DNA of 64,000 nt. Origin: a virus. The position numbers and the translations under genes were made by a program. Within the stretch, counting starts at the first letter, position 1, and each line of letters opens with the position of its first letter. The stretch lies in IMG/VR virus record IMGVR_UViG_3300045988_183866. One strand, 5' to 3'. The notes below the pieces were generated by a model, which saw only the letters and a program-made list of their open reading frames with translations, was not told where the DNA came from and did no database searches. This document shows, piece after piece, positions 1 through 60,588 of the stretch.

Positions 1-2
1 TG

Positions 3-26000: not shown

Positions 26001-28017
26001 TTACCTGATTACGATTGTTAATGGCGTTTATACCATTGGCGAGCGTCTGGTCGAAGTCACTGTCACCGAGCCCAAGGATATCGTCTATGGCGATACCACT
26101 AACCCCGACTTTACCGTAAATGCTGTTGCCACCAATGGCGATGGTACGCACGGTGCAGCTGTCAAACCTGATTCTCTGGGCCTGAAGATGGCACTTGTTT
26201 ATACTCCTTTCGAGAACGACAAGACCACCGACAATGCACAGACTGCTCCCTTGACTGCTGATGCAAAGGCGACTCTGACTCCTGATATCGCCAGCGGCGA
26301 TGACGGCGTGGAGAGCGACAGCCAGTTCAAGACCGAGAATGTCAAGAACGCTGGTACTTACACCTACACCGTTACCTCTGATTACGATGCTGCTGTTGAG
26401 CAGAATTACGCAGTAACAATCAATGTCGTCGATGCTGATAAGAACGAAGCCGATGGTCAGTTCGTTATCGCTCGCAAAGACCTGACGGTTACTCTCGACC
26501 CGAACCCCGTCGTCAAGCTGTATGGCACCAAGACGGAGATTCCCGAAATCAAGACCAGCGGTTACGCTTTCGACGAGACTGCTGAAACCGTTAAGCTGCC
26601 TTCCTTCGAACTCATTGTTGCTTCCAGCATCGATGGTATCTTCGGTAATGTTGGCTTGACGAAGGACGCTTTCAAGTATGTTGGCGGCGCTTACGACAAC
26701 TACAATTACCTGCCGACCACAGGAGACATCGAAGTTCAGCGTCTGCATCTTGCCGATGTAGAACCTGCAACTATCGTTGGTACTGTGGCTGACGAAAAGA
26801 CCGGTAAGCCTGTTGAGGTTACCAAGAAGACGACTGATGACCTGAGTGGCCTGTACTTCAACTCTAAGGTTGAAGTTATCGCTCCTAAGGGTTACGCAAT
26901 CGGAACCAGCGATTCCCTGACCGATGCTGAGTGGGCCGAGAAGATGGTCATTTCCGCTAATAGTGAGAAGGTTACTTCTACCTATTACCTGATTGACCTG
27001 AAGACAGGTGCCATTACCGAGATGGGAACTATCACCACATCTGTTGATACCGAAGCTCCTGTCGTTGCTTCTGCTTTCGCTGCCGATAAGGTTGATTCCA
27101 CCAATAAGACCGATTTGCTGAACGAGAAGTTCGTCAAGTTCGAGAGCACCATCAATGTGTTCATTACTGGTGAAGAGACCGGCAAGGCACCTGAGAAGGA
27201 AGACGACAAGAAGGACGATACCGATAAGAAGGAAGATTCCGACAAGAAGGATGAAACCGAATCCGGTACCGAGGAGAAAGTTCCCAGCGAGTCCGAGAAG
27301 ACCGAAACAACCGATGACAAGACCGAAGCCACTACGCTTCGTATTGCTCATGGTAAGCCCGCTCTCTTCACAACCGGCGACGAGACCGGTGATGAAAACG
27401 GTAACGATGTCGTTGCTACTCCCGACGAAAACGGTGGCAAGGATGATACCGAAGACCCCGACTTCGTGCCTGTTGTAAAGGTCAAGGATTCCGTTCCTGC
27501 TATCTCCGCTCTGGATGGCGAGTACAACTCCGGTGTCGCTAAGATTCAGTATTACAAGGTCAATGGTTCTGCTATTGCCAAGAGTGCTGAGGGCGATTAC
27601 ACCTTCGACGAAACCAAGTTCGAGACTGTCAATGTTACAAACATTGATAAGGACAACGGTTACGTTACCTTCAAGCTGAGCCCCGATTGGACTGGTTACA
27701 TTGTGACCCGTACAGTCGATAAGGCAGGCAACTACGGTGATGTTCGGGTAGCAAGTGTTAAGCTGGAGAATCCTCCGGAAGAAAGCAGACCGACTCCGAC
27801 TCCTGTAGTCAAGAATGAACCTGTTCCCACTCCGGCACCTGTTGTAGTCAACTACAAGACTGGCGTTGGTTTTGGCGCAGACATCATCGTTCCTGTTATC
27901 GTTGTTGTTGCTCTGATTGGCGTTGGCGCATTTGTCATCGTTAAGAAGAAGAAGGGCGATAGCGAAGATAAAGCTGCTGAAAAGACCGAGGATAAAACCG
28001 AGGAAAAGAAGCAGTAA
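20074..28017 (+). CDS. Giant cell-surface adhesin 2 (2647 aa). It has a signal peptide, a Ser/Thr-rich N-terminal region and at least 12 MBG/YDG-like KxYGxxDP modules. An acidic K/D/E region and a Pro/Thr stalk precede NYKTG, a TM helix and a Lys-rich tail.
   Basis: The RBS aggagg sits 7 nt before the ATG at 20074 (MQKPRKRFLSAIVAVAMCLSQFAPVTAYA|VESASG). The in-frame ATG at 20011 is a less likely start because it has no RBS. Motifs include RQYGQQNPQVDFVITGW, KVYGDSDAKGG, RLYGAENPSDADITG, KTYGETDPSFAV, KDYGDADPAFSYSEISG, KVYGEADPELTWTATG, KIYGDENPVLSGDD. The C-terminus is ..VVNYKTGVGFGADIIVPVIVVVALIGVGAFVIVKKKKGDSEDK.. Confidence 0.9.
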   Translation: MQKPRKRFLSAIVAVAMCLSQFAPVTAYAVESASGITQSEEAPKETDALSTTTTNSDSSATTPAPKSDVTDTASSASSDTSVTSDVSSEATSQAGSETTTAYANSAASDTGASTSTSSEASTTGSISEAAQAFIDAANALVSRKDEILTAANNFGLASKAWQADKENAVLDAMVTRRTEELDAVYDWEPIEDMYYSLSEDEQVAEPVMNAYLDMSDLYLQVCDRQENPVDNSGASAFDGGGSTTVIGDYQAITAAETGKQIAAGTGIQYTKISGQENVIRILPQTVTYTYGDSFKSKGLTIEYSTADSRTPQEVQKDIQAAIDGLSFIMYAPADGDGQNPTDIHCNHGTYPTYVDTGATSVTVNGLNYTIIDGSNLDSSKNIRNDTGVTINKRQIFIVPHTTYVTKGNTISQINYTVMDTNGGLVDGDLLPADVLTTENFDKDTTGSYKIILGSSAKSNTNYNVDIQPNTGDVYVVVSEKTLTLTPVFVFKGNDGVQTTGSKATRQYGQQNPQVDFVITGWSDTDKTNFEYKTNNEHKSNAVALKEMLGLSGEPTVVLPSITSAPGGYTVTIGNIQTNAPINGYNINLATATFEITKRNVTITNNQIDAIYGEAEKGKNSTITLDAVAYNGAAQAVSSEARIVTGKDITADDGVNKLVSMVLTTQRQDIDNKNVGEYPMTVEVPPACTAYYDVKVINSKYIIHPAMLTVTLDDLSAMYGAARSGKIKSIEGFKLNDTQASIGLTEDKLGFTMVDAAGNSGIPTTANVGEYNVTASVMGASQERWSPDWDMKADGKDYDRFDNYLVRFVDSKLTITKRPIAINVMGGQTKVYGDSDAKGGVAFTLDPVNGKGGRVGSDFAGCVVTREVGETVGSYAYSDAQFQTAEIAKNYDITFNAPDKYTITKRTLTITVPNRERLYGAENPSDADITGALEYKNFASNDEIGIHDTVASLGGTVTIKYGVDNTVGKLTGVGTYPIVVSGYTNPNYNIVYTGTYSDGTSGTLTINALPVTIKGTTNSVRKYGVAGKNTPSYALYDETGSQAINVVDPQGSPLNIHIDLTKWEDPTTVVGNYEATISYDENPNYIVTIAPQATFQVTEADVSVTFNALQTTYGEKKPDTIAKEVSVNVNTSDGTQIYHDGETVNIKMDGKDVSLGVVRIAVEATANASGLYDAGSYNLTFRLDNQPANSVKLSEPDGKNMLIVHQMPLTITPRYGLSKTYGETDPSFAVNDTYVIFDYNTTSFAEPKADFAQARLSREAGENAGTYPIYSGNIYEQTMAKNYRISFTNDVRFTINKRTAVINLLETEKTYGETLTSMNVKDYIKGGTGLLTTTDVQAAEAEKILKGITLTSGATSASASVGTYALKAIYAQPANYDLTVIDSTITITPRPITLTFSNYEKDYGDADPAFSYSEISGNISNDGLKKNTLELTTGALSGSVTRKAGEDVGEYPISSTLYNKYGNYAITIVTGSGTSVDVGSSTTEPEALEVATLTIKPVKVTFTVAGGYSMIYGGTVPTFSYTVTGLKNNDTVASAFTGSVVYNIKNADGSLSEIPARPAAGDYVITMSGLENKGAKNYDPIVFVDGSLHVDKRDVIVVVDEGQKKVYGEADPELTWTATGDGAYYVSEDAGDLANLKVVRPDAGTDAGEDVGKHPMIIEGDDVNFNITRVNNTFEITPATLNVTLAPQSKIYGDENPVLSGDDLIFDGFVVKPVKGNTTPDDAGVLSIANLTFNFTDAEGAPATVASHAGTGKVVPANVENAAANNYTFVYAPVDFVIDKRPITVTAKPQTSIYGDDVAVEDWSDYGTVNVLEYTGDTAKAALVNGDILEGTNLCLVTSASHVGGYDIVPSFSGLAHRVGQASYQDYLVTAMNGTYTVTQRPLTWTIGTVGSVYGNEMAELSNTLTYTGDADKKTIVNGDDLKAIISITQKDVENAVAEKISMKSADGAASLVAESVPESVKNYGAYDMVGSYDNDDYLITIVNGVYTIGERLVEVTVTEPKDIVYGDTTNPDFTVNAVATNGDGTHGAAVKPDSLGLKMALVYTPFENDKTTDNAQTAPLTADAKATLTPDIASGDDGVESDSQFKTENVKNAGTYTYTVTSDYDAAVEQNYAVTINVVDADKNEADGQFVIARKDLTVTLDPNPVVKLYGTKTEIPEIKTSGYAFDETAETVKLPSFELIVASSIDGIFGNVGLTKDAFKYVGGAYDNYNYLPTTGDIEVQRLHLADVEPATIVGTVADEKTGKPVEVTKKTTDDLSGLYFNSKVEVIAPKGYAIGTSDSLTDAEWAEKMVISANSEKVTSTYYLIDLKTGAITEMGTITTSVDTEAPVVASAFAADKVDSTNKTDLLNEKFVKFESTINVFITGEETGKAPEKEDDKKDDTDKKEDSDKKDETESGTEEKVPSESEKTETTDDKTEATTLRIAHGKPALFTTGDETGDENGNDVVATPDENGGKDDTEDPDFVPVVKVKDSVPAISALDGEYNSGVAKIQYYKVNGSAIAKSAEGDYTFDETKFETVNVTNIDKDNGYVTFKLSPDWTGYIVTRTVDKAGNYGDVRVASVKLENPPEESRPTPTPVVKNEPVPTPAPVVVNYKTGVGFGADIIVPVIVVVALIGVGAFVIVKKKKGDSEDKAAEKTEDKTEEKKQ

Positions 28018-28057
28018 CCAACTGAAATAATCTCTACTCCGCGTAAGAGATAACATA

Positions 28058-34445: not shown

Positions 34446-34964
34446 ATGAACAGCGTAGAAACGAAAACAACGGATAAGACTTATGCAGTCAAGAATACTC
34501 ACAAACAGGAATGGGAGACGCCTCAGGGGCTTTTCGATGACCTGAACAAGGAATATGGTTTCACTCTGGATGCGGCTGCATCGGACAAAAATCATAAATG
34601 CAAGAAATATTACACGGAGCGTGTCGATGGTCTCTTGCAGGACTGGAAAGGTGAAACAGTATTTTGTAATCCCCCGACAGGGCACAAGTCCTTTAAGTTG
34701 TGGGTGCGCAAGGCGTACGAGGAGTCAAGGAAAAGGAATACCACGGTCGTCATGCTTTTACCCGTTTCTACGGACTCTGACTGGTTCCAGAGATACATTT
34801 ATGGACAGCAGGGAGTAAGGGTAAAGTTTCTGCCTGCCAGAATCAAGATGACGAACCCTTATCTGTTCATTGACTCTGAGAATCGGAAAGAGACTATCGG
34901 CAGTCGTCGTCCTTCTATGATTGTTGAGTTCACAAACAAAAAGCGTAAGTTCTCGATTATTTAA
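34446..34964 (+). CDS. Phage-type DNA N6-adenine methyltransferase (Dam, PF05869-like)
   Basis: EWETPQGLFDDLNKEYGFTLDAAASDKNHKCKKYYTERVDGLLQDWKGETVFCNPPTGH...VVMLLPVSTDSDWFQRYIY..VKFLPARIKM matches the phage Dam family pattern (WxTPxxLF..L...FxLDxAA..N.....YYT...DGL...W...vF.NPPY). Here the motif reads NPPT rather than NPPY. Confidence 0.75.
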   Translation: MNSVETKTTDKTYAVKNTHKQEWETPQGLFDDLNKEYGFTLDAAASDKNHKCKKYYTERVDGLLQDWKGETVFCNPPTGHKSFKLWVRKAYEESRKRNTTVVMLLPVSTDSDWFQRYIYGQQGVRVKFLPARIKMTNPYLFIDSENRKETIGSRRPSMIVEFTNKKRKFSII

Positions 34965-37025: not shown

Positions 37026-38367
37026 GGAGTCTTATATCGCCGAGTCTGAGGCGTTGAATAAGCTGTTCAACAATATGACACAGCGCAAAGTTGATGCCGC
37101 AGAAAAGGAAAAACTCAAGAAGGAGGAGAATAAGGGGGAACAGGTGGAAGCAAAGAAGCCTCTGCAGGCAGCTCCCACGACATCTCGTCCGATTCACTCT
37201 GAGTATCTCGAAAAGAAAAAGAAAGAAGAAGAAGAAGCAAAGCGCATTGAGGAGGCTCGCCGCGCAAAGATGCGCAAGCAAATTGAAAAGGAAGAAGCCG
37301 AAAAGGCAGAGCAGGAACGTAAGCTTGCGGAAGAACGCAAGAAGCAGGAAGCTGAAAGGAAGAAGAAAGAGGAAGAACGTCTCGCAAATCTTTTCGGTGT
37401 CACCGCTAAGAAAGAGCCAAAACCGCAATCAAATCCCGTCGTCAAGCCTGCAACAAAGGATGAACCCGTAAAAGAAGAATCTCTTCCTGTAAAGGACGAA
37501 TCCAAGAATGAGGCTACCGAGTCTAAAACGAAGGAAGCGCTCCATGTTTTTGAAACGGTTCTGAACAAAACGGAAGAAAACGAACAAGGGCCGAAAGATG
37601 CCGAACCGGAACAGAAGAAGGTTGCTCCGGTGATTGCAAAGCCTTCTGTTTCCGAACAGATTTCGGAACAGCCTAAGCCTCCTGTCATTCCGGTTAAGGA
37701 TAAAAAGCCCGTGACAGATAAGACGGCTTCTGCACCGGAAATGAAGTCAGAGGCGAAACCCGTTCAGAAGCCTGTTTCACAGCCTGCACAGCGCACAGAA
37801 TCTTCTCAGAAAGGGAATAGTGCAATCATGGCTCGTGGACAGTCCGGTATGCAGATGGAGAAGCCTAAGACAGACAAGCTTTCTATTACCGGCATTGTTC
37901 CGATGAAGAGCGACCGTGGTTCAAAATATGATTCCGCCATGAAGGCTTCGAATGCATTCCGTACGAATGTATTCCTCACTTGCGTTTACAACGACGAGAC
38001 GCGTGAAGGCGCTTACGGTATCGTGGTAGATATGGGAGACAAGCGAATCATCCACGGTATGTGTGGACACACGAGCGATGAATGGGAGTACGGCTTTGCC
38101 GGAGCTATCGAGGCTATGCGTATCTGCACGGAAAACAACGTGAAGGAAATCATGTTTGTTGTACTGGACCCGCTTTGCGAAATTCTACAGCAAAACGCCG
38201 ATGGTCTTCGTTGGGGGTATTCGTACACCCGTTCTCAGTTTACGAAGGCTATCGACGTTTTGAAGAGGGAAGCTGCTATCGGTTTTATCCCGGAGCACGT
38301 TGAGAGCGAGTTTCAAGACCTTGCTGAGACAATCGCTAAGACGCTGGTTTTTCCGGTAAACGATTAA
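37018..38367 (+). CDS. Lys/Glu-rich protein with a C-terminal RNase H-like (RVT_3-like) domain
   Basis: C-terminal EGAYGIVVDMGDKRIIHGMCGHTSDEWEYGFAGAIEAMRICTENNVKEIMFVVLDPL fits an RNase H-like fold pattern. The N-terminal half is highly charged and low-complexity. Confidence 0.45.
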   Translation: MSKESYIAESEALNKLFNNMTQRKVDAAEKEKLKKEENKGEQVEAKKPLQAAPTTSRPIHSEYLEKKKKEEEEAKRIEEARRAKMRKQIEKEEAEKAEQERKLAEERKKQEAERKKKEEERLANLFGVTAKKEPKPQSNPVVKPATKDEPVKEESLPVKDESKNEATESKTKEALHVFETVLNKTEENEQGPKDAEPEQKKVAPVIAKPSVSEQISEQPKPPVIPVKDKKPVTDKTASAPEMKSEAKPVQKPVSQPAQRTESSQKGNSAIMARGQSGMQMEKPKTDKLSITGIVPMKSDRGSKYDSAMKASNAFRTNVFLTCVYNDETREGAYGIVVDMGDKRIIHGMCGHTSDEWEYGFAGAIEAMRICTENNVKEIMFVVLDPLCEILQQNADGLRWGYSYTRSQFTKAIDVLKREAAIGFIPEHVESEFQDLAETIAKTLVFPVND

Positions 38368-38594
38368 CCGTTCCTGTCATTGGAAATACCAAGCAGCCAG
38401 TCAGACGAAACATGTAAGGCTTTTGCTAAATTGCATAGCATTTGTGCTCGCGGCATCGTCTTTCCTGACTCCCATTTTTGGATGCAGCGATAGGAACAAT
38501 TCGTGCTTGCCGCCAACTGTTCTTGGCTGTAATTGATTTCCATTCGTTGCTTTTTGATTCGCTTTCCTACCATGGTATCAAAGGTGGATGGCAT
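38364..38594 (-). CDS. XRE-family helix-turn-helix transcriptional regulator (Cro/CI-like, 76 aa)
   Basis: MVGKRIKKQRMEINYSQEQLAASTNCSYRCIQKWESGKTMPRAQMLCNLAKAL is a canonical XRE HTH. It is one of only two minus-strand genes in the island and is divergent from the par genes. Confidence 0.8.
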   Translation of the reverse strand: MPSTFDTMVGKRIKKQRMEINYSQEQLAASTNCSYRCIQKWESGKTMPRAQMLCNLAKALHVSSDWLLGISNDRNG

Positions 38595-38832
38595 AAATAA
38601 CTCCTTTCTTTTTTGTTGTCTATGCGAACAAAAGTTCGTTGCTGGACAACTGCATGTGTGGTATCATGATAACAACAGGCAGTTGTATATTAGTTGTTCT
38701 TTCCGTTTTAACAACCGCTATACATCAGTCAGTGAGTCCCATTGTTATCTGGTAGACACTTATATTTTATCACGCAGAGTATCCCAAAATTCGTACTTTC
38801 AACTATATTGCGACTCGTTCGGAGGATTTTTT

Positions 38833-39792
38833 ATGGAGATTATTGGAGTAGATACCGGAAACAAAGCAATGAAGACGCCTGGCTGTGAGCCGTTTCCCAC
38901 TGGTCTTGTTCGTCACGGTACGACTGAACCAGCTATCAAGGGAGAGACGATGTGCTACATGGGGAAGTATTATTCCCTCAATGACAGCCGCACGCCTTAT
39001 CAGCAGGATAAGACGAAGGATGATACTTACTTTTTGCTGACGCTGATTGCCGTAGCAAAGAACCTTATAAAGAAGTATCCCAATCAGAAATTCTACAAAT
39101 ACGATGTATGCCTCGCGATGGGCTTGCCCCCGCAGCATATGTCCCTGAAAGCGAAGTATGATGAGTATTTCGGCAAAAGCGGGAAACTCATCAATTTCAT
39201 GTACAAAGATATCCCGTTTGAGATTACTGTCAAGCATGTCTTTGTCTATCCTCAGGGCTTTTCTATTACGGCAGCAGGCGAGATTCAGAAGGAAATCAAG
39301 CGCTATCCTCGTTCTTATGTTGTAGACATCGGCGGGTATACCACGGATGTGATTCGTTTCTCTGGTCGTGGCAACACTTATGCTCCGGACCTTTCTTTCT
39401 GCGAAAGCTATGACCGTGGAGTCATTGAACTCCTGAGCACTGTCGAGAGCGAGCTGCGCGTCCATTGTTCCTTGTCGGTCGATGACTACATGGCTGAGGC
39501 AATCCTTGCAGGAAACAACAACATGCTGGTCGATGAAAACGCCGTGAAGATTGCCAAGGAAACCGCAGACAATTATGCAACAGCATTGATTCGCACGATT
39601 TCCGAAAAAATCAAGGACGATTTCAAAACATCCTATTTCATCTTTATGGGCGGTGGTTCTGCTATGATGCGCGAAAGCATCGAGCGAGCCATTGACACCA
39701 AGAACCTTTTCTTCTTGACGGATGTAACCGCGAATGCAAAAGGATATGAAATCATGGCTCGTGCAAAGCTGACCATGAGCGGTGAAATTTAA
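38833..39792 (+). CDS. parM: Actin-like segregation ATPase (ParM/StbA/Alp family)
   Basis: The RBS ggagg sits 8 nt before the ATG at 38833. MEIIGVDTGNKAMK is phosphate-1, VVDIGGYTTDVI is phosphate-2 and IFMGGGSAM is the adenosine motif. Length is ~320 aa. The upstream in-frame extension from 38533 is rejected. Confidence 0.75.
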   Translation: MEIIGVDTGNKAMKTPGCEPFPTGLVRHGTTEPAIKGETMCYMGKYYSLNDSRTPYQQDKTKDDTYFLLTLIAVAKNLIKKYPNQKFYKYDVCLAMGLPPQHMSLKAKYDEYFGKSGKLINFMYKDIPFEITVKHVFVYPQGFSITAAGEIQKEIKRYPRSYVVDIGGYTTDVIRFSGRGNTYAPDLSFCESYDRGVIELLSTVESELRVHCSLSVDDYMAEAILAGNNNMLVDENAVKIAKETADNYATALIRTISEKIKDDFKTSYFIFMGGGSAMMRESIERAIDTKNLFFLTDVTANAKGYEIMARAKLTMSGEI

Positions 39793-39825
39793 GAGCACCG
39801 GTTTTGAAAGCGTGGTGAGCACTGA

Positions 39826-40290
39826 ATGCCGCGTGGACGTCCCAAAAAGAATGAAGCAGAAAAAGAGACCGTTGGCACGACGGTACGAACCACACTTGTT
39901 TTTGATTTAAGCAAAGACAATCATGTACTTGTATATGATTATCTGAATAGTTTGCAACGCGGCGGAAAAACCGATGCGGTTGTAAATGCTATAATCGACA
40001 AGGCTACAAAACAACATGAGATGCAAGAAGCGCAGTCCATCTTAAAAGAGGAATTGCAAAACACAATAGCAGAAGAAATCAGAAGCTGTATTCCTCAGAT
40101 TGTAGATGCAGTGACAAGCAGCATTCAGAAAAACGGGATTGCGGTAGCTGCGCCAGCTTCAAATTACTCCCCCCAAAACATTACAGACACACAAACCATC
40201 AACACAACTCCCAAAACAGAAGAAGCACCGCCTCCTATTTCAGAAGAAGCGATGCTTGCATTACAGTTAGCCGATATGTTTGGCGGCTAA
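39826..40290 (+). CDS. Small basic DNA-binding protein, candidate ParR-like adaptor
   Basis: The N-terminus MPRGRPKKNEAEKETVGTTVRTTLVFDL is AT-hook/RHH-like. It lies immediately downstream of parM. Confidence 0.4.
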   Translation: MPRGRPKKNEAEKETVGTTVRTTLVFDLSKDNHVLVYDYLNSLQRGGKTDAVVNAIIDKATKQHEMQEAQSILKEELQNTIAEEIRSCIPQIVDAVTSSIQKNGIAVAAPASNYSPQNITDTQTINTTPKTEEAPPPISEEAMLALQLADMFGG

Positions 40291-40953
40291 TCATTTGTCG
40301 TGATTGGCTTTCTCTATTTTATCGAGACGCTTAATCTTATTCTCAGCGTTATCTAATCTGTTGCGGTACTGAACTTCATTGGGTAACGCTTCACCATCAT
40401 TACCATAGAAGTATTTCTTTGCCTTTGAAAGTATTTGAGAACTTGTTTTTCTTAAATTCGGGTCAAGGTATTCGGCACCGACCAATGTTCTTGAAATATC
40501 ATCCATTGCATCGGGGCCAAGAGAAATCAGAAAAGAAGCCAGTTCCAAAGAGTATAGGTCTGCCACTGTTTGCGGAGCAGACACGGAATCAGGAATTGAC
40601 AAATTATAGCCAAACAGATAGCAAAACTGAACCACATAAGGAAATACTACAGTTCCAAAATTTGCATTTGGTTGCATGAATGTCTTGTTGTAAGCGGCAG
40701 TGCTGCTGTATCCCAACATTGCTGCAAATTCATCAGCGGTAAACCCATAACGGAGTCTCGTCCGTTCCATCAGAACATTCAGATATTTCACGGTATTCTC
40801 CGTGTCAACAAAGCAAGATTTTGCCTGTTCCATAAAGGTATCTACAATTTTTGCTCGTTCTTGCTTGGAAGCAGTGTTCATTTTGCCTCCCATCAAGAAA
40901 GCATTGAAGATATTCTCTACCGATTCGTGGTTGTTGTTGATATTGTTACTCAT
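40291..40953 (-). CDS. Putative HTH transcriptional regulator (221 aa)
   Basis: The RBS aggaggg precedes an ATG (plus-strand cat at 40951-40953). YGFTADEFAAMLGYSSTAAYNKTF is HTH-like. It is divergent from the gene at 41108. Confidence 0.45.
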   Translation of the reverse strand: MSNNINNNHESVENIFNAFLMGGKMNTASKQERAKIVDTFMEQAKSCFVDTENTVKYLNVLMERTRLRYGFTADEFAAMLGYSSTAAYNKTFMQPNANFGTVVFPYVVQFCYLFGYNLSIPDSVSAPQTVADLYSLELASFLISLGPDAMDDISRTLVGAEYLDPNLRKTSSQILSKAKKYFYGNDGEALPNEVQYRNRLDNAENKIKRLDKIEKANHDK

Positions 40954-41107
40954 AATTTCCCTCCTGCTTGGTTTAACAGACAAGTTTATATAATTACCGA
41001 AAACAACAATTTTTGTAACCGGTAATATAAATTATACCTTTACTGCACTTATATAATACCACAAAAACGTGAAAAAGTCAATTACTGTACATTAGGGGGA
41101 GCGATTT

Positions 41108-41563
41108 ATGGCCGCTATTATTTATCTTGATATCGTCAAAACGCCGGAACTGAATGGGGAGGTGTGCGTTCACAGTTTTGTCGTAAATCCTTCCGCCAAG
41201 TCGGATAGACAGAAGGATACTTATTTTATGGCTACTCCAATTGGTTATACAAGGCTGAAATTGGCAGAGCTCTGCCGCATTATCGAGAACATCGGTTTAC
41301 CAACAGGGTCTCAGATTGTCGTATTCAGCAGCGATAATGCGATTGCGCGTACTGGTGCTTCTTTTGGCGTAGAGGACGGCGATACTGAGCCCAGTCATAA
41401 CAAAGACCTTTGGGCGCGACTTAAATATGCCTGTAGCGCAAAGAAGTACAAGGTCATGTTCCATTATAGTGGCCTTTTGTCCGAAACCGTACATGATAAC
41501 ACGCATATTCATATTGAAACGAATCTTGCGAAAGGAGGGAAGGCAAATTGTCCGAAGCATTGA
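41108..41563 (+). CDS. Ribonuclease H-like protein (RNase HI family-like)
   Basis: AAIIYLDIV...YTRLKLAELCRIIENIGLPTGSQIVVFSSDNAIA...DLWARLKYACSAKKYKVMFHYSGLL..NTHIHIETNLA resembles the RNase HI layout (iYtDGs...ELlA.i.aL.......v.l.sDS.y...lW.rL......v.w.wvkGH.g...N...D.LA). Confidence 0.5.
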   Translation: MAAIIYLDIVKTPELNGEVCVHSFVVNPSAKSDRQKDTYFMATPIGYTRLKLAELCRIIENIGLPTGSQIVVFSSDNAIARTGASFGVEDGDTEPSHNKDLWARLKYACSAKKYKVMFHYSGLLSETVHDNTHIHIETNLAKGGKANCPKH

Positions 41564-42609
41564 ATAAAGCCCAAGAACAGCAGCTTTACGCATTGCTCGA
41601 TGCTATTATGCAGGACAACATTGTTCTGCGTAGAAGTTTTGGCGGAGACATCCCCAATTCTTATGTGCTGACAAAGTGCGTAAACCGTGTTGTGGAAGAG
41701 CGGCCGGAACTGAAAGAAGCGGCTGTTCTGATGATATTGTATCCGGCACTCAAATGGATGATGCAGGCACAAGACCTTGATGTCATGATGCAGAACTGTG
41801 AAAACGTTCACGACGATGAGATGTGCGATGTCGAAGCCATTTCCCGTCTGCGCCGTATTCAAAGCTGGCTGGCTCCGAACATTGAGGAAGAGTCTTTGCA
41901 TTTCAGGAAACGCAAAGAATACTTCGAAAGTTGTCAGATGCTTCTTGACGCCATTGAGGAGTCGCGGTTAGAACTCTTGTACGAAGTCGATTATTGTTCC
42001 AGCATGCGGGAGGTGTTTGATTGCTTTTTGAATCCCGCCGTTCTTCCGAAGAATGGACGCATCAAAATCATGAAGTATTGCGAGCGGTGCATTGAATCCG
42101 TTTACAATACAGCAGGTAGTGTTATCAAGGAATATTATAAAATCCTGATGACAAGCAGTGATGTGGACGGGGTAGAAGAAGCAAGCCTTTATCATAATGT
42201 TCCACTGCTCCTTACGGAATACACGCGTATTCTGTATCGTGCCTCACGGTCAAAGGACCCCGCCATGAAGCTGCTTGGGTCTTCTTCGTACGAAGATTTG
42301 AGTAAAATCAAAGTTTCTGATAAAAACAGAAGCGATGCCTATCTCATTGTGGAGTATGTGAAACTCATACGAGGGGCTATCGAAATCATGAAACAGTTCC
42401 CGCTTGGTCAACGTTATTATGACGTTATCCTTGCAATGATTGAGGGGAAAAAGTACAACTGGACAGATGAGCAGATTGCCGGGCATCTTGGTGTTACGGC
42501 AGGAACATTCTCTACCAGAAAAGGACATGCCATTGGTGTGTTCGGATGCTTATTGTTTGGCTGTGACGCGAACGGGCTGCTGAATTGCCTGATTGACGCT
42601 CGCGTTTAA
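41548..42609 (+). CDS. Putative transcription factor with a sigma-70 region-4-like C-terminal HTH
   Basis: C-terminal KKYNWTDEQIAGHLGVTAGTFSTRKGHAIGVF resembles sigma region 4 (L.deEIAe.lg.s.gtV.sr..rA). Confidence 0.4.
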   Translation: MSEALNKAQEQQLYALLDAIMQDNIVLRRSFGGDIPNSYVLTKCVNRVVEERPELKEAAVLMILYPALKWMMQAQDLDVMMQNCENVHDDEMCDVEAISRLRRIQSWLAPNIEEESLHFRKRKEYFESCQMLLDAIEESRLELLYEVDYCSSMREVFDCFLNPAVLPKNGRIKIMKYCERCIESVYNTAGSVIKEYYKILMTSSDVDGVEEASLYHNVPLLLTEYTRILYRASRSKDPAMKLLGSSSYEDLSKIKVSDKNRSDAYLIVEYVKLIRGAIEIMKQFPLGQRYYDVILAMIEGKKYNWTDEQIAGHLGVTAGTFSTRKGHAIGVFGCLLFGCDANGLLNCLIDARV

Positions 42610-48588: not shown

Positions 48589-49929
48589 TTGGACAACATT
48601 AAAAATCCGGCGAAAAAGCCGAAACTCAAAAAGTCTTATTCGAACAGCACTATCTTTCAGAAGCTGATGGTGGATGATGTTCGCAACAAGATTCTCTTCA
48701 CCATCCTTTGTCTTCTGATTTATCGTCTGGGTTGCGGTATTACGATTCCGTTCGTAAACACCGCTGCGCTTCAGACTATGTTCGGAAGCACCTCTGTACT
48801 GGATTATTACAATCTGGTTTCCGGTGGCGCACTTTCTCAGTGTGCGGTATTTGCGATTGGCGTATCTGCATACATCAACGCAAGCATCATTATCCAGCTT
48901 TTGACTGTTGCGATTCCGAAACTGGAAGAAATCAGCAAGGACATCGGCGGGCAGAAGCAAATCAATAAAATCACGCAGTATGTTGGTTGTGGTTTGGCGG
49001 TCGTAACAGCTATCGGGTACTTCTTTATTATGAAGAACTACGGTGCGATGAAATACACTTCCGGCATTTCGCAGGTTGTGGAAGCCATTACTGTTATTGC
49101 CATTCTGACTGCTGGCTCTCAAATCGTCATCTGGCTTGGATGGCTGATTGACGAAAAAGGTATTGGCAACGGTATTTCCCTTATCATCTTTACCGGTATC
49201 ATTTCCAGATGGGATGCTGTCATCTCGTTGTTCCAGAACTCTATTGCAATGGGCAAAGAAAATGGATGGTGGTATTATCTGATGATTCCCGGCATCATCC
49301 TCTTTGTTTTGGCGGCCACCTTCTATGTCGTTTTCGCAAGCGATGCAGAGCGCCGCGTTCCTGTTCAGTATGCCGGTAAAAATGTAGGGAACAAAGCATC
49401 CACTGGTCAGTCCAGTTATATCCCCATCAAACTGATTATGTCGGGTGTTATGCCTATTATTTTCTCGTCCACCATTTGCAGTATGCCGTCCCTCGTGACG
49501 ATGTTCCTCGATTACAACAAGCACCCCAGCCTGTATATGGCGCTGGCATCTTGGAATTCGCGGAATTGGATTTATGATGTTGCGTATGTAGCCCTGATTT
49601 TCGCATTCAACTTATTCTACATCGACATCACATTCGACCCCATCGAAATGGCAAACAACCTGCGCAAGAACGGCGGCAGTATCCCCGGTATTCGAGCAGG
49701 CAAAGCTACCAGTGATTATCTGCGCAATGCTTGCCATTCTCTCGCCGGTTCGGGAGCATTTGTTCTTTCGGTTATTGCATGTGTGCCTATCTTGGCAACT
49801 GCGGTTACAGGTCTGAACATGCACTTTGGCGGTACCAGTCTGTTGATTGTCACAGGTGTTACGCTTGAAGTTATCGATTCTCTTAACAGCCATTTGGTGG
49901 TTCGCCATCACAAGGGTTTCTTGAATTGA
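48589..49929 (+). CDS. secY2: Divergent SecY-family protein-conducting channel subunit (accessory SecY2-like)
   Basis: A TTG start sits 7 nt after the RBS ggaaggag. SecY hallmarks are present. GGALSQCAVFAIGVSAYINASIIIQLL matches LGImPYItASIIiQLL. KDIGGQKQINKITQYVGCGLAVVTAIGY matches KEGexGRrKIsqyTRY. GNGISLIIFTGI is present. C-terminal GGTSLLIVTGVTLEVIDSL matches GGTSLLIvVGVaLdt. About 10 TM segments. It is not in a ribosomal-protein/adk context. Confidence 0.85.
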   Translation: MDNIKNPAKKPKLKKSYSNSTIFQKLMVDDVRNKILFTILCLLIYRLGCGITIPFVNTAALQTMFGSTSVLDYYNLVSGGALSQCAVFAIGVSAYINASIIIQLLTVAIPKLEEISKDIGGQKQINKITQYVGCGLAVVTAIGYFFIMKNYGAMKYTSGISQVVEAITVIAILTAGSQIVIWLGWLIDEKGIGNGISLIIFTGIISRWDAVISLFQNSIAMGKENGWWYYLMIPGIILFVLAATFYVVFASDAERRVPVQYAGKNVGNKASTGQSSYIPIKLIMSGVMPIIFSSTICSMPSLVTMFLDYNKHPSLYMALASWNSRNWIYDVAYVALIFAFNLFYIDITFDPIEMANNLRKNGGSIPGIRAGKATSDYLRNACHSLAGSGAFVLSVIACVPILATAVTGLNMHFGGTSLLIVTGVTLEVIDSLNSHLVVRHHKGFLN

Positions 49930-49944
49930 CGGGAGGGCAACACA

Positions 49945-50199
49945 ATGGCAATTTATGAAATCATTCTGTGCATCTTGATTCTGTTGGTTTCTGTTCTGGT
50001 TTGTGCGGTTACGCTTTCCATGGATAAGGCCGACAAGAACAGTCTTAGTGTTATCACCGGAATCAGTGATACAATGCGCTCGAATGCTAAAGACAGCACG
50101 AAAACGTCCGCAAATAAACTGGTTGCTGTATGTACAGCTATTCTGCTTGTTATCGCAATCATCATGTTCGTAGTAACCGGAGTAGGAGGTGCGGCATGA
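49945..50199 (+). CDS. SecG-like small two-TM membrane protein (Asp5/SecG-like)
   Basis: 84 aa. TM1 IILCILILLVSVLVCAV, a polar loop DKADKNSLSVITGISDTMRSNAKD (cf. SecG KSAGLSGAISGGAEQLFG) and TM2 AVCTAILLVIAIIMFVV. It sits directly after secY2. Confidence 0.55.
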   Translation: MAIYEIILCILILLVSVLVCAVTLSMDKADKNSLSVITGISDTMRSNAKDSTKTSANKLVAVCTAILLVIAIIMFVVTGVGGAA

Positions 50200-50447
50200 A
50201 AGATAAACTGAAAAAGGTAGGAACGACTATTGCGAATTTCGTGAAGGCAATTCCTTCTTTCGTCAAGAGCACGCCTAAGAAGCTTCACAATTTGGTTGCA
50301 CCCAAAAATGTGACTTGGCCGAGTATGCACAACACGCTCCATCGAACCGGAGCAGTTCTTGTTGTGAGTGCTGTATCCGCCGTTATTATTGGCATTATGG
50401 ATGCGGCATACGCTCTGTTGCTTCACGTTCCGTTCCTGTTCGTTTAA
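50196..50447 (+). CDS. SecE-like small membrane protein (Asp4/SecE-like)
   Basis: The ATG overlaps the upstream stop (ATGA), and the RBS aggaggtg is present. KKLHNLVAPKNVTWPSMHNTLHRTGAVLVVSAVSAVIIGIMDAAYALL matches the SecE signature (kkVtWPsrkE + single TM). Confidence 0.55.
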   Translation: MKDKLKKVGTTIANFVKAIPSFVKSTPKKLHNLVAPKNVTWPSMHNTLHRTGAVLVVSAVSAVIIGIMDAAYALLLHVPFLFV

Positions 50448-50461
50448 AATACTGCCCCGGT

Positions 50462-50498
50462 AGGCAACCTGTCTGCCGGGGTCTTTTTTATAAAGGAG
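50462..50498 (+). terminator. Rho-independent terminator ending the secY2-secG-secE-like operon
   Basis: Hairpin ccccggtagg-caacctgtct-gccgggg followed by T6. Confidence 0.6.
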
Positions 50499-50505
50499 TT
50501 TTTTT

Positions 50506-51669
50506 ATGAAAAAAAATGCAAAAGAGATTTTGGCAGTCATCAGTGCCGCATGTATTGCATTGACCGCGTGTGGCAAAAACGTGACCGATGCAAGTACATC
50601 TGAGACTGCGGAAACAGCCACCTCCGAAACGGCGACCGCTATTGAGTATGACCTCGGTCTTGATGATGATGGGTATTTTCGCAATGTGACTGCATCCAAG
50701 TACATAAAAATGCCCAAGGATTATAAGGAGTATACGGTCAGCAAAGATGTATACGCCGTTACAGACGAGGAGATTCAAAATGAGTTGGATTATTTTCAGT
50801 CCAATTACAAGCTGACGACAGAGGTAACAGACCGCGCCGCACAGGAAGGCGATGTTGTGAACATTGACTATGAGGGTACGGTTGATGGTGTTGCTTTTAC
50901 CGGTGGAACAACAGAAGACTACGATTTGGAACTCGGTTCCAATACATTTATTGACGGATTTGAAGACCAAATCGTCGGGCATAACACGGGGGATTCGTTT
51001 GACGTCACAGTAACATTCCCTGATGGATATAGCAGTACAACAGATAGAACTACAGGCGAGCAGACTATCGAACTCGCCAACAAGGAAGCTGTTTTCCATG
51101 TAACGCTTAATAAAATTTCTCAATATAGCATGACAGATGCTGATGTTGCCGGTATCATGAGTGGCTACAAGCTGCAAGACGGTACTGCTGTAACCACAGT
51201 AGCTCTGCTTCGTGAATATGTTGAAGAGAATCTTCGGATGAATAAGATTCAGAATGAGATTGAACAGTATTTCATTGACAATGTAAAACTCAAAAAGGAT
51301 ACGACAGACCTTGTCAATCTGAGTCTTGAAACTAACTTGAAGTATGTCGAAAACGAAGCAACTGCCTACAATATGGACTTGGAGACATTCGTTCAGACAT
51401 ACAGCAATTATAAGACCTCGGAGGAGTATTCAGAAAGTCTTCGTAGTCAGACGGAAGAAAATGTTTTACTGAGCCTTGTTGCGCAGTATCTGGCAGAGGA
51501 ACAGGACTATAAACCGTCTGTCGATGAAGTGAAAGCTTATATTGGCAGTAACTACGATAACGCCGTTGATACCTATGGAGCAGGTCCTTTGGCACAGGAG
51601 TGTATGTATAACAAGATTATGGGCAACTACTGCATTGATGTGTACGAGCGGTCTGCCGCAGCTGAGTAA
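50506..51669 (+). CDS. Trigger-factor-like lipoprotein (FKBP-type PPIase domain plus TF C-terminal domain, with a lipoprotein signal replacing the ribosome-binding domain)
   Basis: The RBS aaggag precedes the ATG. MKKNAKEILAVISAACIALTACGK is a signal II / lipobox. AVTDEEIQNELDYFQSNYKLTTEVTDRAAQEGDVVNIDYEGTVDGVAFTGGTTEDYDLELGSNTFIDGFEDQIVGHNTGDSFDVTVTFPDGY closely parallels the trigger-factor PPIase domain (..GDrVtIDFtGsvDGeeFeGGkaedf.L.lGsg.mIpGFEdgi.Ghk.Ge.f.idVtFPe.Y). A TF-like C-terminal helical domain follows. Confidence 0.75.
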   Translation: MKKNAKEILAVISAACIALTACGKNVTDASTSETAETATSETATAIEYDLGLDDDGYFRNVTASKYIKMPKDYKEYTVSKDVYAVTDEEIQNELDYFQSNYKLTTEVTDRAAQEGDVVNIDYEGTVDGVAFTGGTTEDYDLELGSNTFIDGFEDQIVGHNTGDSFDVTVTFPDGYSSTTDRTTGEQTIELANKEAVFHVTLNKISQYSMTDADVAGIMSGYKLQDGTAVTTVALLREYVEENLRMNKIQNEIEQYFIDNVKLKKDTTDLVNLSLETNLKYVENEATAYNMDLETFVQTYSNYKTSEEYSESLRSQTEENVLLSLVAQYLAEEQDYKPSVDEVKAYIGSNYDNAVDTYGAGPLAQECMYNKIMGNYCIDVYERSAAAE

Positions 51670-51680
51670 GGTGATGTATT

Positions 51681-52652
51681 ATGGCAAAAACACCTATTAT
51701 TCCACCACTGCCCAAAGAAGAATATTTCGAGCAGGAACTTGGTGCGTACAATTACATTCCAAATGATGAGGATGATGGAACTGGTGAAAACTTCCCTCAT
51801 CAAAAGGCAAGCCATGACGAGGATGACAATGAATCGATGGATGCGATGGACGTGTCAGAGGGCAAAGAGAAACGGCGATTTTCCATCTGGACAGTTTTGT
51901 TGGTCGTAATTTGCATCGTTCTTATTGCCATGATTGGCTATATTGGATGGAAGGCGTATGATTACTATCATATTCCTGCATATGAAACAGGAGACATCTC
52001 CGACGATGTAGAAGAACCCGTTTCTACCCCCTCGATTCTTATCCCGTCTTCTAATTCAAGTGAGAGTGATTCAGAACCGGAACCGACACCAAAGCCAGCG
52101 TATTCCAAAAACACCGTTGGTTACTTAACCGTTCCCGGCGTTGATGTTACAGATGAGCCCATTTTGCAGCATCCCACAGACGATGATTATTACCTGACTC
52201 ACAATGAGTTCGATAGGGAAAGTATCTGGGGCGCTTATTTTGTTCCTTCCGAATGGAATGTCAGCAATGTTGACGATATGTACAGAGTAACTGTTATTTT
52301 TGGACATAGCAACGGAAATAGTATGCACAAGAAATTCAGTGTTTTGAAATACTTTCGCGATGTCAACTTTGCAAAGGAACATCGGTATATTTATCTTACC
52401 TTGGGTGAACAGCAGACACGATGGAAAATCTTTGCTGTTGCCGATTATCCTATTGACCCAAGTTATACCATTGCGAATCCGGATGATTCGTATTTCCTGA
52501 CAGAGATTGCAAGTATGAAAGCTTACTCTTACAATCAGTATGCCACAGAAGTTGGATTGAATGATAAGGTTTTGATTTTGTCCACCTGTTCAGGCAGTGA
52601 TAATTACGATACTCGTTTTATTGTATGTGCAAAACTTGACGAAGTCTTCTGA
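51681..52652 (+). CDS. srtB: Class B sortase (SrtB family) with an N-terminal cytoplasmic segment and a TM anchor
   Basis: TVGYLTVPGVDVTDEPILQHPTDDDYYLTHNEFDRESIWGAYFV matches SrtB (ivGWikl.gT.lnYPVlqg.dndyYL..dF.re....GsiFmD). VTVIFGHSNGNSMH is the catalytic His. VLILSTCSGSDNYDTRFIVCAKL is the TLSTC catalytic Cys plus the conserved Arg. TM helix WTVLLVVICIVLIAMIGYIGW. Confidence 0.9.
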   Translation: MAKTPIIPPLPKEEYFEQELGAYNYIPNDEDDGTGENFPHQKASHDEDDNESMDAMDVSEGKEKRRFSIWTVLLVVICIVLIAMIGYIGWKAYDYYHIPAYETGDISDDVEEPVSTPSILIPSSNSSESDSEPEPTPKPAYSKNTVGYLTVPGVDVTDEPILQHPTDDDYYLTHNEFDRESIWGAYFVPSEWNVSNVDDMYRVTVIFGHSNGNSMHKKFSVLKYFRDVNFAKEHRYIYLTLGEQQTRWKIFAVADYPIDPSYTIANPDDSYFLTEIASMKAYSYNQYATEVGLNDKVLILSTCSGSDNYDTRFIVCAKLDEVF

Positions 52653-54674: not shown

Positions 54675-54971
54675 ATGAGTTACGAGACTGTGATGACGGC
54701 AGCAAAAATCATTGCCACTGCGCATCCTATCGCACGAGGGGTTTGTAAGTGCGATACGCCTGCAGACGTATCTTTCAAGGATGTTGCCAGTACGCTTCTC
54801 GATTCCGGATGGGAAAGCGTTCTTATTGCCGATAAAAATCTGTTGATTGCGAACACCGATGTCGCAAGAAACGATTATGTGAATGCTCATCCCAAGAGCA
54901 AATTCACGATTTATCGACGGAAAATCGACAAGCACGGCATCCCTCGGAAAGTCACCGAAGTGTGGGGGTGA
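54675..54971 (+). CDS. Hypothetical protein (98 aa)
   Basis: The RBS taggagga is present. Moderate coding signal. Confidence 0.4.
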   Translation: MSYETVMTAAKIIATAHPIARGVCKCDTPADVSFKDVASTLLDSGWESVLIADKNLLIANTDVARNDYVNAHPKSKFTIYRRKIDKHGIPRKVTEVWG

Positions 54972-55645
54972 AATGTGTGAGCTGCACTCGAACCGTTTGG
55001 CTGATTGACACTGAGAATATCCCTAAAAAATGGGTAAAGACAGTGTATTTCAAGACCAAAAGAGATAAACTAATTATCTTTCTCGGTCCAGAGGCCACCT
55101 GTATGTCACTCAAAGAGTTGCAGGTATTCCTGACAAAATATCCAGCTAACCAAGTTGAGTTCTGCAATTCCAATGCAGGAAAAAACAGCATGGATTTTCA
55201 CATTGCGGCCAAGCTTGGAAGCCTTTGCACAACAGGGAAGAAAAGCCATTATATCATCGTATCGGGAGATAAAGGATATGATGGGCTTATTCAGACCATG
55301 TGCGAAAATGGATTTTGTGTTAGTCGAATGACTTGTGATGCAGCACCCGCACAAAAAGAATCACCGGAAACGGTGAAAAGTATTTCTGCTATCACTGATA
55401 GCAAAAGCAAGGAAGTTTTTTGCGCACGACTTCGAGAATTGTGTATTCAGCAAAAAATTAACACTGAAAACACAAACAAGATTATCGATGCTGCAAAGAA
55501 AATTTCTTCTCCTTACAAAAAGAATTTCATCACGCATGTCAATCCTAAGATTTCTCATGCCGGTGCCGGAAATGCACAAAACGCAGCGCATGCTGCAGCA
55601 CTGATGAGAGCTGTAAAGAAAGAAATATATCCTTTGCTTGCATAA
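54962..55645 (+). CDS. NYN/LabA-like domain protein (putative nuclease)
   Basis: VWLIDTENIP...KDKLIIFLG...GKNSMDFHIAAKLG...HYIIVSGDKGYDGLIQTMCENGFCV fits the NYN pattern (iDgeN..........GKNaaDial..d.....vlvSgDsDF.plv..l.e.G..V). The start is uncertain (GTG). Confidence 0.5.
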   Translation: MGVKCVSCTRTVWLIDTENIPKKWVKTVYFKTKRDKLIIFLGPEATCMSLKELQVFLTKYPANQVEFCNSNAGKNSMDFHIAAKLGSLCTTGKKSHYIIVSGDKGYDGLIQTMCENGFCVSRMTCDAAPAQKESPETVKSISAITDSKSKEVFCARLRELCIQQKINTENTNKIIDAAKKISSPYKKNFITHVNPKISHAGAGNAQNAAHAAALMRAVKKEIYPLLA

Positions 55646-60571: not shown

Positions 60572-60588
60572 TGAAAGGAGTAAATAGA

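Follow-up and report, generated by a model that had tools for sequence, protein, structure and literature searches.

Which kind of element carries the gene pair found at positions 38833 to 40290 of IMG/VR virus record IMGVR_UViG_3300045988_183866, and does this pair segregate the DNA on which it resides? The stretch of 64,000 nucleotides analysed here (hereafter the window) is filed as viral, and the pair opens with parM, a gene for an actin-like segregation ATPase. A sequence-only reading of the segment 38364-42609 had described an episome-like backbone composed of a divergent XRE regulator, a ParM/ParR-like pair, a helix-turn-helix (HTH) regulator, an RNase H and a sigma-region-4-like protein. 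We consider it probable that a DNA-segregation cassette of type II (actin-type, ParMR-like) occupies the region, on a circular conjugative megaplasmid of about 350 kb from human gut Bacillota, of the kind published under the name Hodor (Yuan et al., bioRxiv 2026, PMC12934698). Both the element and its ParM gene have been described before; the core interpretation of the sequence-only reading is supported and several of its details are corrected below.

ParM, an actin-like segregation ATPase

The two genes of the pair, with product lengths in amino acids (aa), are:

38833-39792, plus strand: parM, actin-like segregation ATPase, 319 aa
39826-40290, plus strand: gene of a ParR-like adaptor, 154 aa, directly after parM

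The parM open reading frame (ORF) begins with an ATG at 38833, preceded by GGAGG at 38821, and ends at 39792. Protein sequence analysis and the predicted structure identify its product as a true ParM-type actin-like protein (ALP), as the sequence-only reading had proposed. Pfam gives matches to MreB-like_C (1.8e-12), ALP_N (3e-7) and Alp7A_like_C, all above the curated cut-offs, and the full length of the protein matches PHROG_691, a 'partition protein' family, at 6e-29. A plain phmmer search of PDB sequences finds ParM of plasmid R1 (E=1e-3) with the DIGGxT and GGG motifs aligned. Actin-fold hidden Markov models (HMMs) and a structure prediction had been suggested as checks that could disprove the assignment; besides the Pfam matches above cut-off, AlphaFold2 gives a model with a predicted local distance difference test score (pLDDT) of 92.3 and a predicted template-modelling score (pTM) of 0.88. 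The best Foldseek match of this model in the PDB is Ta0583 (template-modelling (TM) score 0.76), and further matches comprise the ParM proteins of R1, pSK41, Clostridium botulinum and Bacillus thuringiensis, Alp7A, CorM, Alp12 and AlfA; MreB and MamK rank below all of these.

The nucleotide-binding motifs D7-x-G9...K14, D165-I-G-G-x-T170 and G273-G-G275, which are the phosphate-1, phosphate-2 and adenosine motifs of the actin fold, are invariant in an alignment of 46 homologues reaching down to 31% identity, and the ATPase motifs are thus intact. The gene is under purifying selection: its variable codons among ten near-identical strains are synonymous in 36 cases and non-synonymous in 3, a count to be read with the fact that six of the ten strain sequences were retrieved via the identical ParM protein.

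The closest annotated homologues, at about 31% identity, are encoded by megaplasmids of the cultured Clostridia Vescimonas, Subdoligranulum, Butyrivibrio, Monoglobus and Ruminococcus albus. Three relatives that served for comparison are named by the identity of their ParM to that of the window: L014 (79%), L015 (69%) and L017 (44%).

L021 (contig k119_5386) and L022 (NODE_213) also encode ParM relatives, 35-39% identical, in both cases followed by a small gene. One of these settings is similar to an integrative and conjugative element (ICE), with Toprim, SSB, three tyrosine integrases and DNA methylases; the other lies beside type IV secretion system (T4SS) pilin and VirD4 genes. They indicate that the ALP-adaptor pair is widespread on conjugative elements of Clostridia, beyond plasmids.

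The putative ParR-like adaptor

The organization of the 154-aa protein points to a ParR-like adaptor, although the statistics behind the ParR call are weak. It has a basic AT-hook-like tail (PRGRPKK), a predicted ribbon-helix-helix at about residues 20-60, a long helix, a disordered linker and a conserved C-terminal amphipathic helix, EEAMLALQLADMFGG, whose counterpart in plasmid pCY186 is EEDMDALNDALKAFGA. Seven adaptors, translated and aligned, share a basic N-terminus, an R-x-T-(L/I/V)-x-F strand, a helix, a G-x-K-T turn, a second helix containing VNA, a variable linker and an acidic amphipathic C-terminus. The small basic protein announced by the sequence-only reading is indeed found directly downstream of parM, but it is not basic as a whole: its overall isoelectric point is 4.9, with a basic segment limited to residues 1-60 (9.2) and an acidic remainder (4.3).

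The association of the two genes is obligate. An adaptor-type gene of 110-161 aa directly follows parM in nine of nine contexts examined: the window, L014, L015, L017, the Oscillospiraceae metagenome-assembled genome contig L007, Vescimonas fastidiosa pMM35_02, Butyrivibrio proteoclasticus pCY186, L021 and L022. A profile search brings the adaptor family to 598 members, essentially devoid of Pfam annotation; a word-indexed search with the single sequence reached close relatives only. Among 26 family members, Pfam returns noise and a weak AT_hook match, and the family profile compared to PDB sequences yields only spurious matches to interferon and haemoglobin.

A further indication of kinship comes from ParR of pSK41, whose sequence was taken from the annotated plasmid. 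The helix-turn-helix part of its ribbon-helix-helix aligns without gaps to the adaptor (VYDYLNSLQRGGKTDAVVNAII vs IFDFLENVPRGTKTAHIREALR), with weak statistics, and in hhalign the adaptor profile aligns over helix 1, turn and helix 2 with E=0.0045 for one comparison but a probability of 7.7%. The adaptor is 35, 38 and 26% identical to its counterparts in L014, L015 and L017, for which the ParM values are 79, 69 and 44%; it evolves faster than its partner, as is usual for ParR. It is under purifying selection among the ten near-identical strains (16 synonymous and 4 non-synonymous variable codons; ratio of non-synonymous to synonymous polymorphism, pN/pS, about 0.07).

The XRE regulator and the divergent promoter region

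The region upstream of parM contains the following features:

38364-38594, minus strand: XRE-family (HTH_3) regulator, 76 aa, divergent from parM
38595-38832, no strand: divergent promoter/operator region between xre and parM, 238 nt
38625-38638, no strand: palindrome O1, CGAAC-AAAA-GTTCG, 14 bp, abutting the -35 of parM
38639-38667, plus strand: parM promoter, with -35 TTGCTG at 38639-38644, a 17-nt spacer, and an extended -10 made of TG at 38659-38660 and TATCAT at 38662-38667
38646-38686, no strand: inverted repeat of the sequence-only reading, arms at 38646-38657 and 38675-38686
38672-38686, no strand: palindrome O2, ACAAC-AGGCA-GTTGT, 15 bp, at about +1 to +15 of the parM transcript

The divergent XRE regulator was correctly recognized from the sequence: residues 13-67 match Pfam HTH_3 at 1.5e-13 (51 bits for a cut-off of 23 bits), HTH_19 matches as well, and PHROG matches are to transcriptional regulators and repressors (best 1.5e-17). 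The gene is found also in L014 and, as an uncalled ORF, in L015, and it does not stand beside parM in L017. The XRE repressor gene is an insertion upstream of parM in this lineage. In L017 parM lies 18 nt from the upstream gene, both the XRE gene and the two palindromes are missing, and parM appears to be co-transcribed with a string of genes that includes Dam.

Alignment of three lineages shows conserved islands amid otherwise diverged sequence in the spacer 38595-38832. The extended -10, TGTGgTAT(C/T/A)AT (38657-38667 in the window), is conserved in L014 and L015; a consensus promoter scan reads the same site as TGGACA-16-CATGAT. The -10 region is itself palindromic (TGGTATCATGATAACA, 38659-38674), so that an extended -10 of sequence TGtTATCAT can also be read on the minus strand, towards xre. 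We infer that xre and parM have overlapping, mutually exclusive divergent promoters.

O1 occupies the same relative position in the window, L014, L015/16 and eight near-identical strains. The O2-type palindrome, ACAAC-N5-GTTGT, is unique in the 64-kb window; L014 has a single copy and L015 has two, all at the corresponding place. The arms are identical and the spacers vary across these three (AGGCA, CGACG, AAATG and TACCG). Single nucleotide polymorphisms in the palindromes among the ten strains fall only in the spacers, at 38630 (the sole one in O1) and at 38679 and 38680 (O2). Since shuffled sequences yield 2.5 matches to ACAAC-N5-GTTGT with at most one mismatch in 64 kb, the single occurrence is not unusual and the significance of O2 rests on its positional conservation across lineages. 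The region between xre and parM also holds the 150-nt stretch of the window richest in ACAAC/GTTGT (6 copies for 0.55 expected), a motif chosen post hoc. O2 is a candidate operator and/or centromere-like site.

The inverted repeat that the sequence-only reading had noticed upstream of parM, and interpreted as a possible centromere or operator, is present: its 12-nt arms ACAACTGCATGT (38646-38657) and ACAGGCAGTTGT (38675-38686) are 92% complementary and flank TGGTATCAT at 38659-38667. Its conservation in L014 and L015 is limited to the right arm, which lies within O2; the left arm is lineage-specific. Rfam at gathering threshold detects nothing in the whole window and the 5' untranslated region of parM folds no better than shuffled sequences (z=0.69), which argues against a riboswitch or structured leader at parM.

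Other repeats were observed in L017, in the intergenic region 12233-12389 after a minus-strand gene: four copies of the 16-nt sequence CACTATATATTGTGGT, two direct and two inverted, overlap a TTGCAA-17-TATAAT promoter. Judged from sequence, they may be the operator or centromere of the L017 lineage.

The replicon: a gut megaplasmid of about 350 kb

The exact ParM protein is present in 363 blocks of a public metagenome assembly collection, in which all carrying contigs are at most 1 Mb long. The longest measure 349,558, 349,139, 317,770 and 282,213 bp, cluster members reach 346,931 and 346,487 bp, and the IMG/VR uncultivated viral genomes (UViGs) reach 345,980 bp. This ceiling of 346-350 kb recurs in independent human gut samples, and the ENA samples with ParM contigs are named after human gut metagenome cohorts. 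Of the two 349-kb contigs, one has parM some 42 kb from its start and pointing forward, and the other has it at about 143 kb and reversed. Differing offsets and orientations combined with a length plateau suggest that the contigs are circularly permuted forms of a complete replicon, about 350 kb long, which, as read from contig break points and not from read mapping, would be circular. The window itself is 97-99% identical over 21 kb to nine contigs, each from a different gut sample; it has a GC content of 46.6% and carries nearly all its genes on the plus strand. A megablast search of the 36-46 kb region against PLSDB and INPHARED gave no match, and a scan of GTDB representative genomes with ParM gave only matches of 29-31% identity.

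These data support the extrachromosomal, megaplasmid setting of the cassette, as the sequence-only reading had suggested. A rival explanation, chromosomal integration of the region as a degenerate episome or island, could draw on a 35%-identical ParM relative found in a contig with housekeeping genes and integrases, and on the absence of the element from GTDB representative genomes. It is hardly credible when none of the 363 blocks has a carrying contig above 1 Mb, the contigs end on a common plateau with differing break points, the genes are all intact and under purifying selection, and integrases are not found in the window.

A huge phage or phage-plasmid, in which the cassette would maintain a plasmid-like prophage state, is what the IMG/VR filing of the ParM contigs implies; the match of ParM to a PHROG family and the presence of C. 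botulinum phage-plasmid ParMs among its structural neighbours go in the same direction. Pfam and PHROG scans of the 64-kb window, however, find no capsid, portal, terminase or tail gene, and the window has no tRNA. Hodors encode Rep_3, ParA, ParB, a T4SS (VirB4, VirD4) and a MOBH-like relaxase, have TerL solely within inserted prophages of about 40 kb, and are systematically misfiled as viruses by geNomad and VirSorter2 (PMC12934698). We regard the phage hypothesis as very unlikely.

We assign the megaplasmid, probably, to group G1 of the Hodors. The published elements are conjugative, inhabit the human gut and have a mean size of 357 kb, compared with about 346-350 kb for the contigs of the window family; their GC content is 47.1% in G1 and 44.6% in G2 (PMC12934698), the former close to the 46.6% of the window. 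They encode giant proteins of 7,309-7,704 aa and a second one of about 2,642 aa (PMC12934698), to be compared in the window with a giant MBG protein that the window edge truncates (at least 6,547 aa) and, after it, a protein of 2,668 aa. The Hodor gene set SecY-SecG-SecE, trigger factor and sortase B (PMC12934698) is found in the window in the same order, with a class B sortase. ParM/StbA is one of the four Hodor marker genes and TnpB genes are frequent (PMC12934698); here ParM is present and TnpB insertions occur in some strains. The filing of the element as a virus in IMG/VR and the existence of two deep lineages, whose ParM proteins are here 44% identical, complete the resemblance. One difference is that Pfam scans of the 64-kb window ORFs found no Rep_3, ParA/ParB or T4SS genes. 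Because of this, the term "backbone" used by the sequence-only reading is too strong. Its statement that integrase, relaxase and phage structural genes are lacking agrees with the same Pfam scans, which found none. The main text of PMC12934698 does not mention ParR, a centromere, actin, an XRE gene or the position of parM.

A proposed segregation cassette and its alternatives

We privilege the hypothesis that the cassette segregates the megaplasmid. The parM product would be an ATP-dependent, filament-forming actin homologue. The adaptor would bind the short palindromes around the parM promoter through a dimer of its N-terminal ribbon-helix-helix and its basic AT-hook-like tail, and its C-terminal amphipathic helix would dock on the ends of ParM filaments, whose growth would push sister plasmids apart and so stabilise the plasmid. 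The adaptor-DNA complex would also repress the par promoter. In this lineage the divergent XRE protein may provide an extra regulatory layer, acting on CGAAC-N4-GTTCG at the -35 and/or ACAAC-N5-GTTGT at +1, the two palindromes flanking a palindromic extended -10 that would be common to both divergent transcripts. The pairing of proteins with palindromes in this scheme is tentative.

Several observations weigh against this hypothesis or parts of it. Searches of Pfam, NCBIfam, PHROGs and PDB sequences, including the ParR HMM check that the sequence-only reading had recommended, give the adaptor no significant match to ParR, and its hhalign probability to pSK41 ParR is the low value given above. 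Its AlphaFold2 monomer is weak (pLDDT 59), with helices at 31-45, 49-103 and 140-152 and disorder at 104-134, and Foldseek finds no match with this low-confidence model; such a model is what a ribbon-helix-helix protein that is an obligate dimer with a tethered interaction helix would look like. No parC-type array of at least three direct repeats is found upstream or downstream (repeat search, seed 7), where only two-copy families at chance level occur. The conserved sites are single palindromes of 14-15 bp, equally typical of XRE/Cro-type HTH dimers, and their absence from L017 means that the DNA site is not universal. The ParM relatives at 35-39% identity reside in an ICE-like element and a T4SS cluster. 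ParMR may be redundant, because Hodors also encode ParA/ParB (PMC12934698). Finally, membership in the Hodors is defined by a nucleotide identity of 90% or more with one of the curated genomes (PMC12934698), and our assignment is based on a feature match with the published description, not on sequence comparison with the curated genomes.

The location of the cassette brings in another explanation. It stands between the giant surface-protein operon and the Sec/sortase module, in a window where Pfam scans find neither Rep nor ParAB nor T4SS genes. The ParM-adaptor pair could be real without serving partition, with the Rep_3-linked ParAB segregating the plasmid and the filament positioning the plasmid, the conjugation machinery or the adhesin-secretion module at the envelope, or being the relic of an ICE. 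The conservation of gene order from parM to the SAF/CpaB-like gene, between lineages whose ParMs are merely 44% identical, would fit this explanation, as would the integrases, T4SS pilin and VirD4 genes adjoining the 35-39% relatives, the lack of a multi-repeat centromere and the presence of ParA/ParB in Hodors (PMC12934698). Against it, the nearest structural and sequence relatives of ParM are all plasmid-segregating ALPs, and its obligate partner, encoded just downstream, has the layout of ParR, with an N-terminus resembling a DNA-binding domain and a C-terminal helix that is conserved; the same gene pair is found directly after the rep gene in pCY186. Type I and type II par loci are known to coexist on large plasmids such as pB171. 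We hold this explanation to be unlikely.

A bolder version, which we find distinctly unlikely, makes of the ParM-adaptor pair a second filament system independent of Rep_3/ParAB and hard-wired in the block between the giant-adhesin operon and SecYEG/sortase, its 'centromere' being reduced to one or two 15-bp palindromes that double as a bidirectional XRE switch through face-to-face extended -10s. If true, the filament could couple plasmid position to the envelope and secretion apparatus or to conjugation, and not simply separate sister copies, and the adaptor would stand for a ParR-like family that lacks annotation, with about 600 members in mobile elements of Clostridia. Segregation of the megaplasmid by a ParMR-like cassette is the hypothesis retained in what follows.

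Genes and sites downstream of the adaptor

The features found on the 3' side of the adaptor gene are:

40285-40309, plus strand: terminator-like hairpin at the junction of the convergent parR-like and 220-aa genes, from a consensus scan
40291-40953, minus strand: conserved 220-aa protein with a possible HTH (RLRYGFTADEFAAMLGYSS...); a longer frame extends to 40983 (230 aa)
40984-41107, no strand: second intergenic region, 124 nt
41108-41563, plus strand: 151-aa protein, possibly RNase H-like (weak four-ortholog profile match)
41548-42609, plus strand: conserved 353-aa protein with a C-terminal HTH-like segment, overlapping the 151-aa gene

The order of the 220-, 151- and 353-aa genes is conserved in all four lineages. 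Terminator-like sites are not more numerous in the window than expected from shuffles. The 220-aa gene is syntenic in all four lineages, and its product has no significant match in Pfam, PHROG, NCBIfam or PDB profiles, with HTH_26 at E=0.17 in one ortholog only; the HTH regulator proposed at 40291-40983 on the minus strand thus receives no backing from these searches. The promoter of its gene, on the minus strand at 41081-41053, reads TTGACT-17-TATTAT, carries a TG extension and is conserved in both L014 and L015. The same intergenic region contains an imperfect palindrome at 40993-41026, with ATTACCG at 40993 and CGGTAAT at 41020. This is the repeat described earlier as ATTACCG-N23-CGGTAAT, whose spacer is in fact 20 nt; it was rejected as a conserved element, being found neither in L014, despite a ParM identity of 79%, nor in L015.

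For the 151-aa protein an RNase H-like nature is plausible from sequence comparison, which goes less far than the RNase H initially named. A profile of four orthologs aligns weakly with E. coli RNase HI (E=0.06-0.25), bringing E54 onto E48, the Asp of SSD onto D70 and HNKDLWARL onto KNVDLWQRL. Pfam RNase_H does not match, and the orthologs vary at the acidic residues, some of them having S or E in place of the first Asp and C in place of the third acidic residue. The 353-aa protein is syntenic and 29-65% identical across lineages. It has no match in Pfam (E up to 5, for the window protein and the L017 ortholog), NCBIfam, PHROG or PDB profiles. Region 4.2 of E. coli RpoE (residues 141-173) aligns in register with its C-terminal HTH-like segment, but with E=0.31 and a probability of 0.2% in hhalign, and the sigma-region-4-like label finds no statistical backing.

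Further downstream, segment 43060-46218 encodes a SAF/CpaB-like protein (Pfam SAF 1e-3, TIGR03177 5e-5) and two proteins, of 227 and 474 aa, that contain hydrophobic stretches. The three genes are syntenic across lineages. One may speculate that they take part in pilus or T4SS assembly.

Other genes of the window and strain polymorphisms

The remaining assigned features of the window are:

1-19646, plus strand: giant MBG/DUF11 surface-protein gene running off the window start, at least 6,547 aa
20011-28017, plus strand: second MBG protein, 2,668 aa
31242-32777: flotillin/Band_7 protein
34446-34964: Dam-family N6-adenine methyltransferase
48589-52652: accessory secretion module, which starts with SecY (Pfam 8e-87)
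49945-50199: SecG-like protein
50130-50447: SecE, above cut-off
50506-51669: FKBP/trigger-factor-like lipoprotein (FKBP/Trigger_C)
51681-52652: class B sortase (NCBIfam TIGR03064 7e-22, below the curated cut-off; no Pfam match)
54962-55645: PIN7 nuclease-domain protein
58794-59591: Api92-like ferredoxin-domain protein (DUF1281_C)
60568-61353: radical SAM protein

Both giant proteins carry MBG_2 repeats. The long antisense frames seen in their genes, of 4,168 aa (4077-16583, minus strand) in the giant gene and of 2,209 aa (21427-28056, minus strand) in the 2,668-aa gene, are probably stop-poor frames of repeat-rich genes and not real genes. Upstream of xre and parM, segment 35355-38367 holds two conserved genes encoding proteins of 556 aa (weak C-terminal match to DUF2325) and 449 aa (rich in Lys, Glu and Pro). 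The C-terminal 120 or so residues of the latter have, by eye, an RNase H-like look (VFLTCVYND...EWEYGFAGAIEAM...VVLDPL).

Two presence/absence differences were observed among strains. L002 and L005 carry an IS605/TnpB (Cas12f-like) gene of about 367 aa on the minus strand, flanked by the genes of 217 and 171 aa, at locus positions of about 18.2-19.3 kb corresponding to about 46.9-47.0 kb of the window; an alignment gap in L009 points to the same insertion. The window, L001, L003, L004 and L006 lack the gene, and the insertion polymorphism is a recent one. The near-identical contigs L017 and L019 have a 130-aa HNH endonuclease gene at 14782-15174 that is missing from L018.

Significance

The main value of the analysis is a correct identification: the record is a fragment of a megaplasmid that is very prevalent in the human gut, with its exact ParM in hundreds of assembly blocks. 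This megaplasmid is routinely labelled a virus by mistake, and GTDB representative genomes lack it. Beyond the main text of the preprint it adds a likely ParR partner from a family of some 600 proteins essentially without Pfam annotation, a conserved promoter with two candidate palindromic operators, a lineage-specific XRE insertion, and the finding that Pfam scans detect no Rep, ParAB or T4SS genes in the 64-kb window bearing parMR. These additions, among them the adaptor family, the operators and the cassette placement, are modest and conventional and will not surprise plasmid biologists. They provide targets for footprinting and stability assays and could help the development of vectors for uncultured gut Clostridia.

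Comparison with known partition systems

The ParMRC system of E. coli plasmid R1 is related in structure more than in sequence. The two ParMs match in phmmer, as described above, with an identity of just 16%, whereas the structural likeness is strong and includes the ParM-ParR peptide complex 4A62. R1 parC consists of ten 11-bp iterons, and no iteron-type array is found in the window. As in R1, a candidate DNA site overlaps the promoter, which suggests autoregulation; the window cassette differs by its XRE regulator.

ParMRC of Staphylococcus aureus plasmid pSK41 has the same ParM fold (TM 0.69) with negligible sequence similarity (BLASTP E=0.29). In pSK41, parC lies upstream of parM and is made up of 20-bp direct repeats in an array, in contrast to the single 14-15-bp palindromes conserved here. 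The window adaptor is longer than pSK41 ParR (154 vs 109 aa), with its long central helix and AT-hook-like tail, but the N-terminus aligns without gaps and the C-terminus is acidic in both. The gene order is also alike: parM, a small parR and a convergent HTH gene on the minus strand, the HTH of the window counterpart being a possible one.

The closest annotated systems are those of cultured Clostridia: the ParM/StbA proteins of Vescimonas fastidiosa pMM35_02, Subdoligranulum variabile plasmids and Butyrivibrio proteoclasticus pCY186 are about 31% identical over at least 97% of the protein. The flanks were read in pMM35_02 and pCY186, whose neighbourhoods differ from that of the window and have neither the XRE gene nor the palindromes. 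Both plasmids nevertheless have, after parM, a homologous small gene annotated as 'hypothetical protein', and in pCY186 this parM-adaptor pair directly follows the rep gene.

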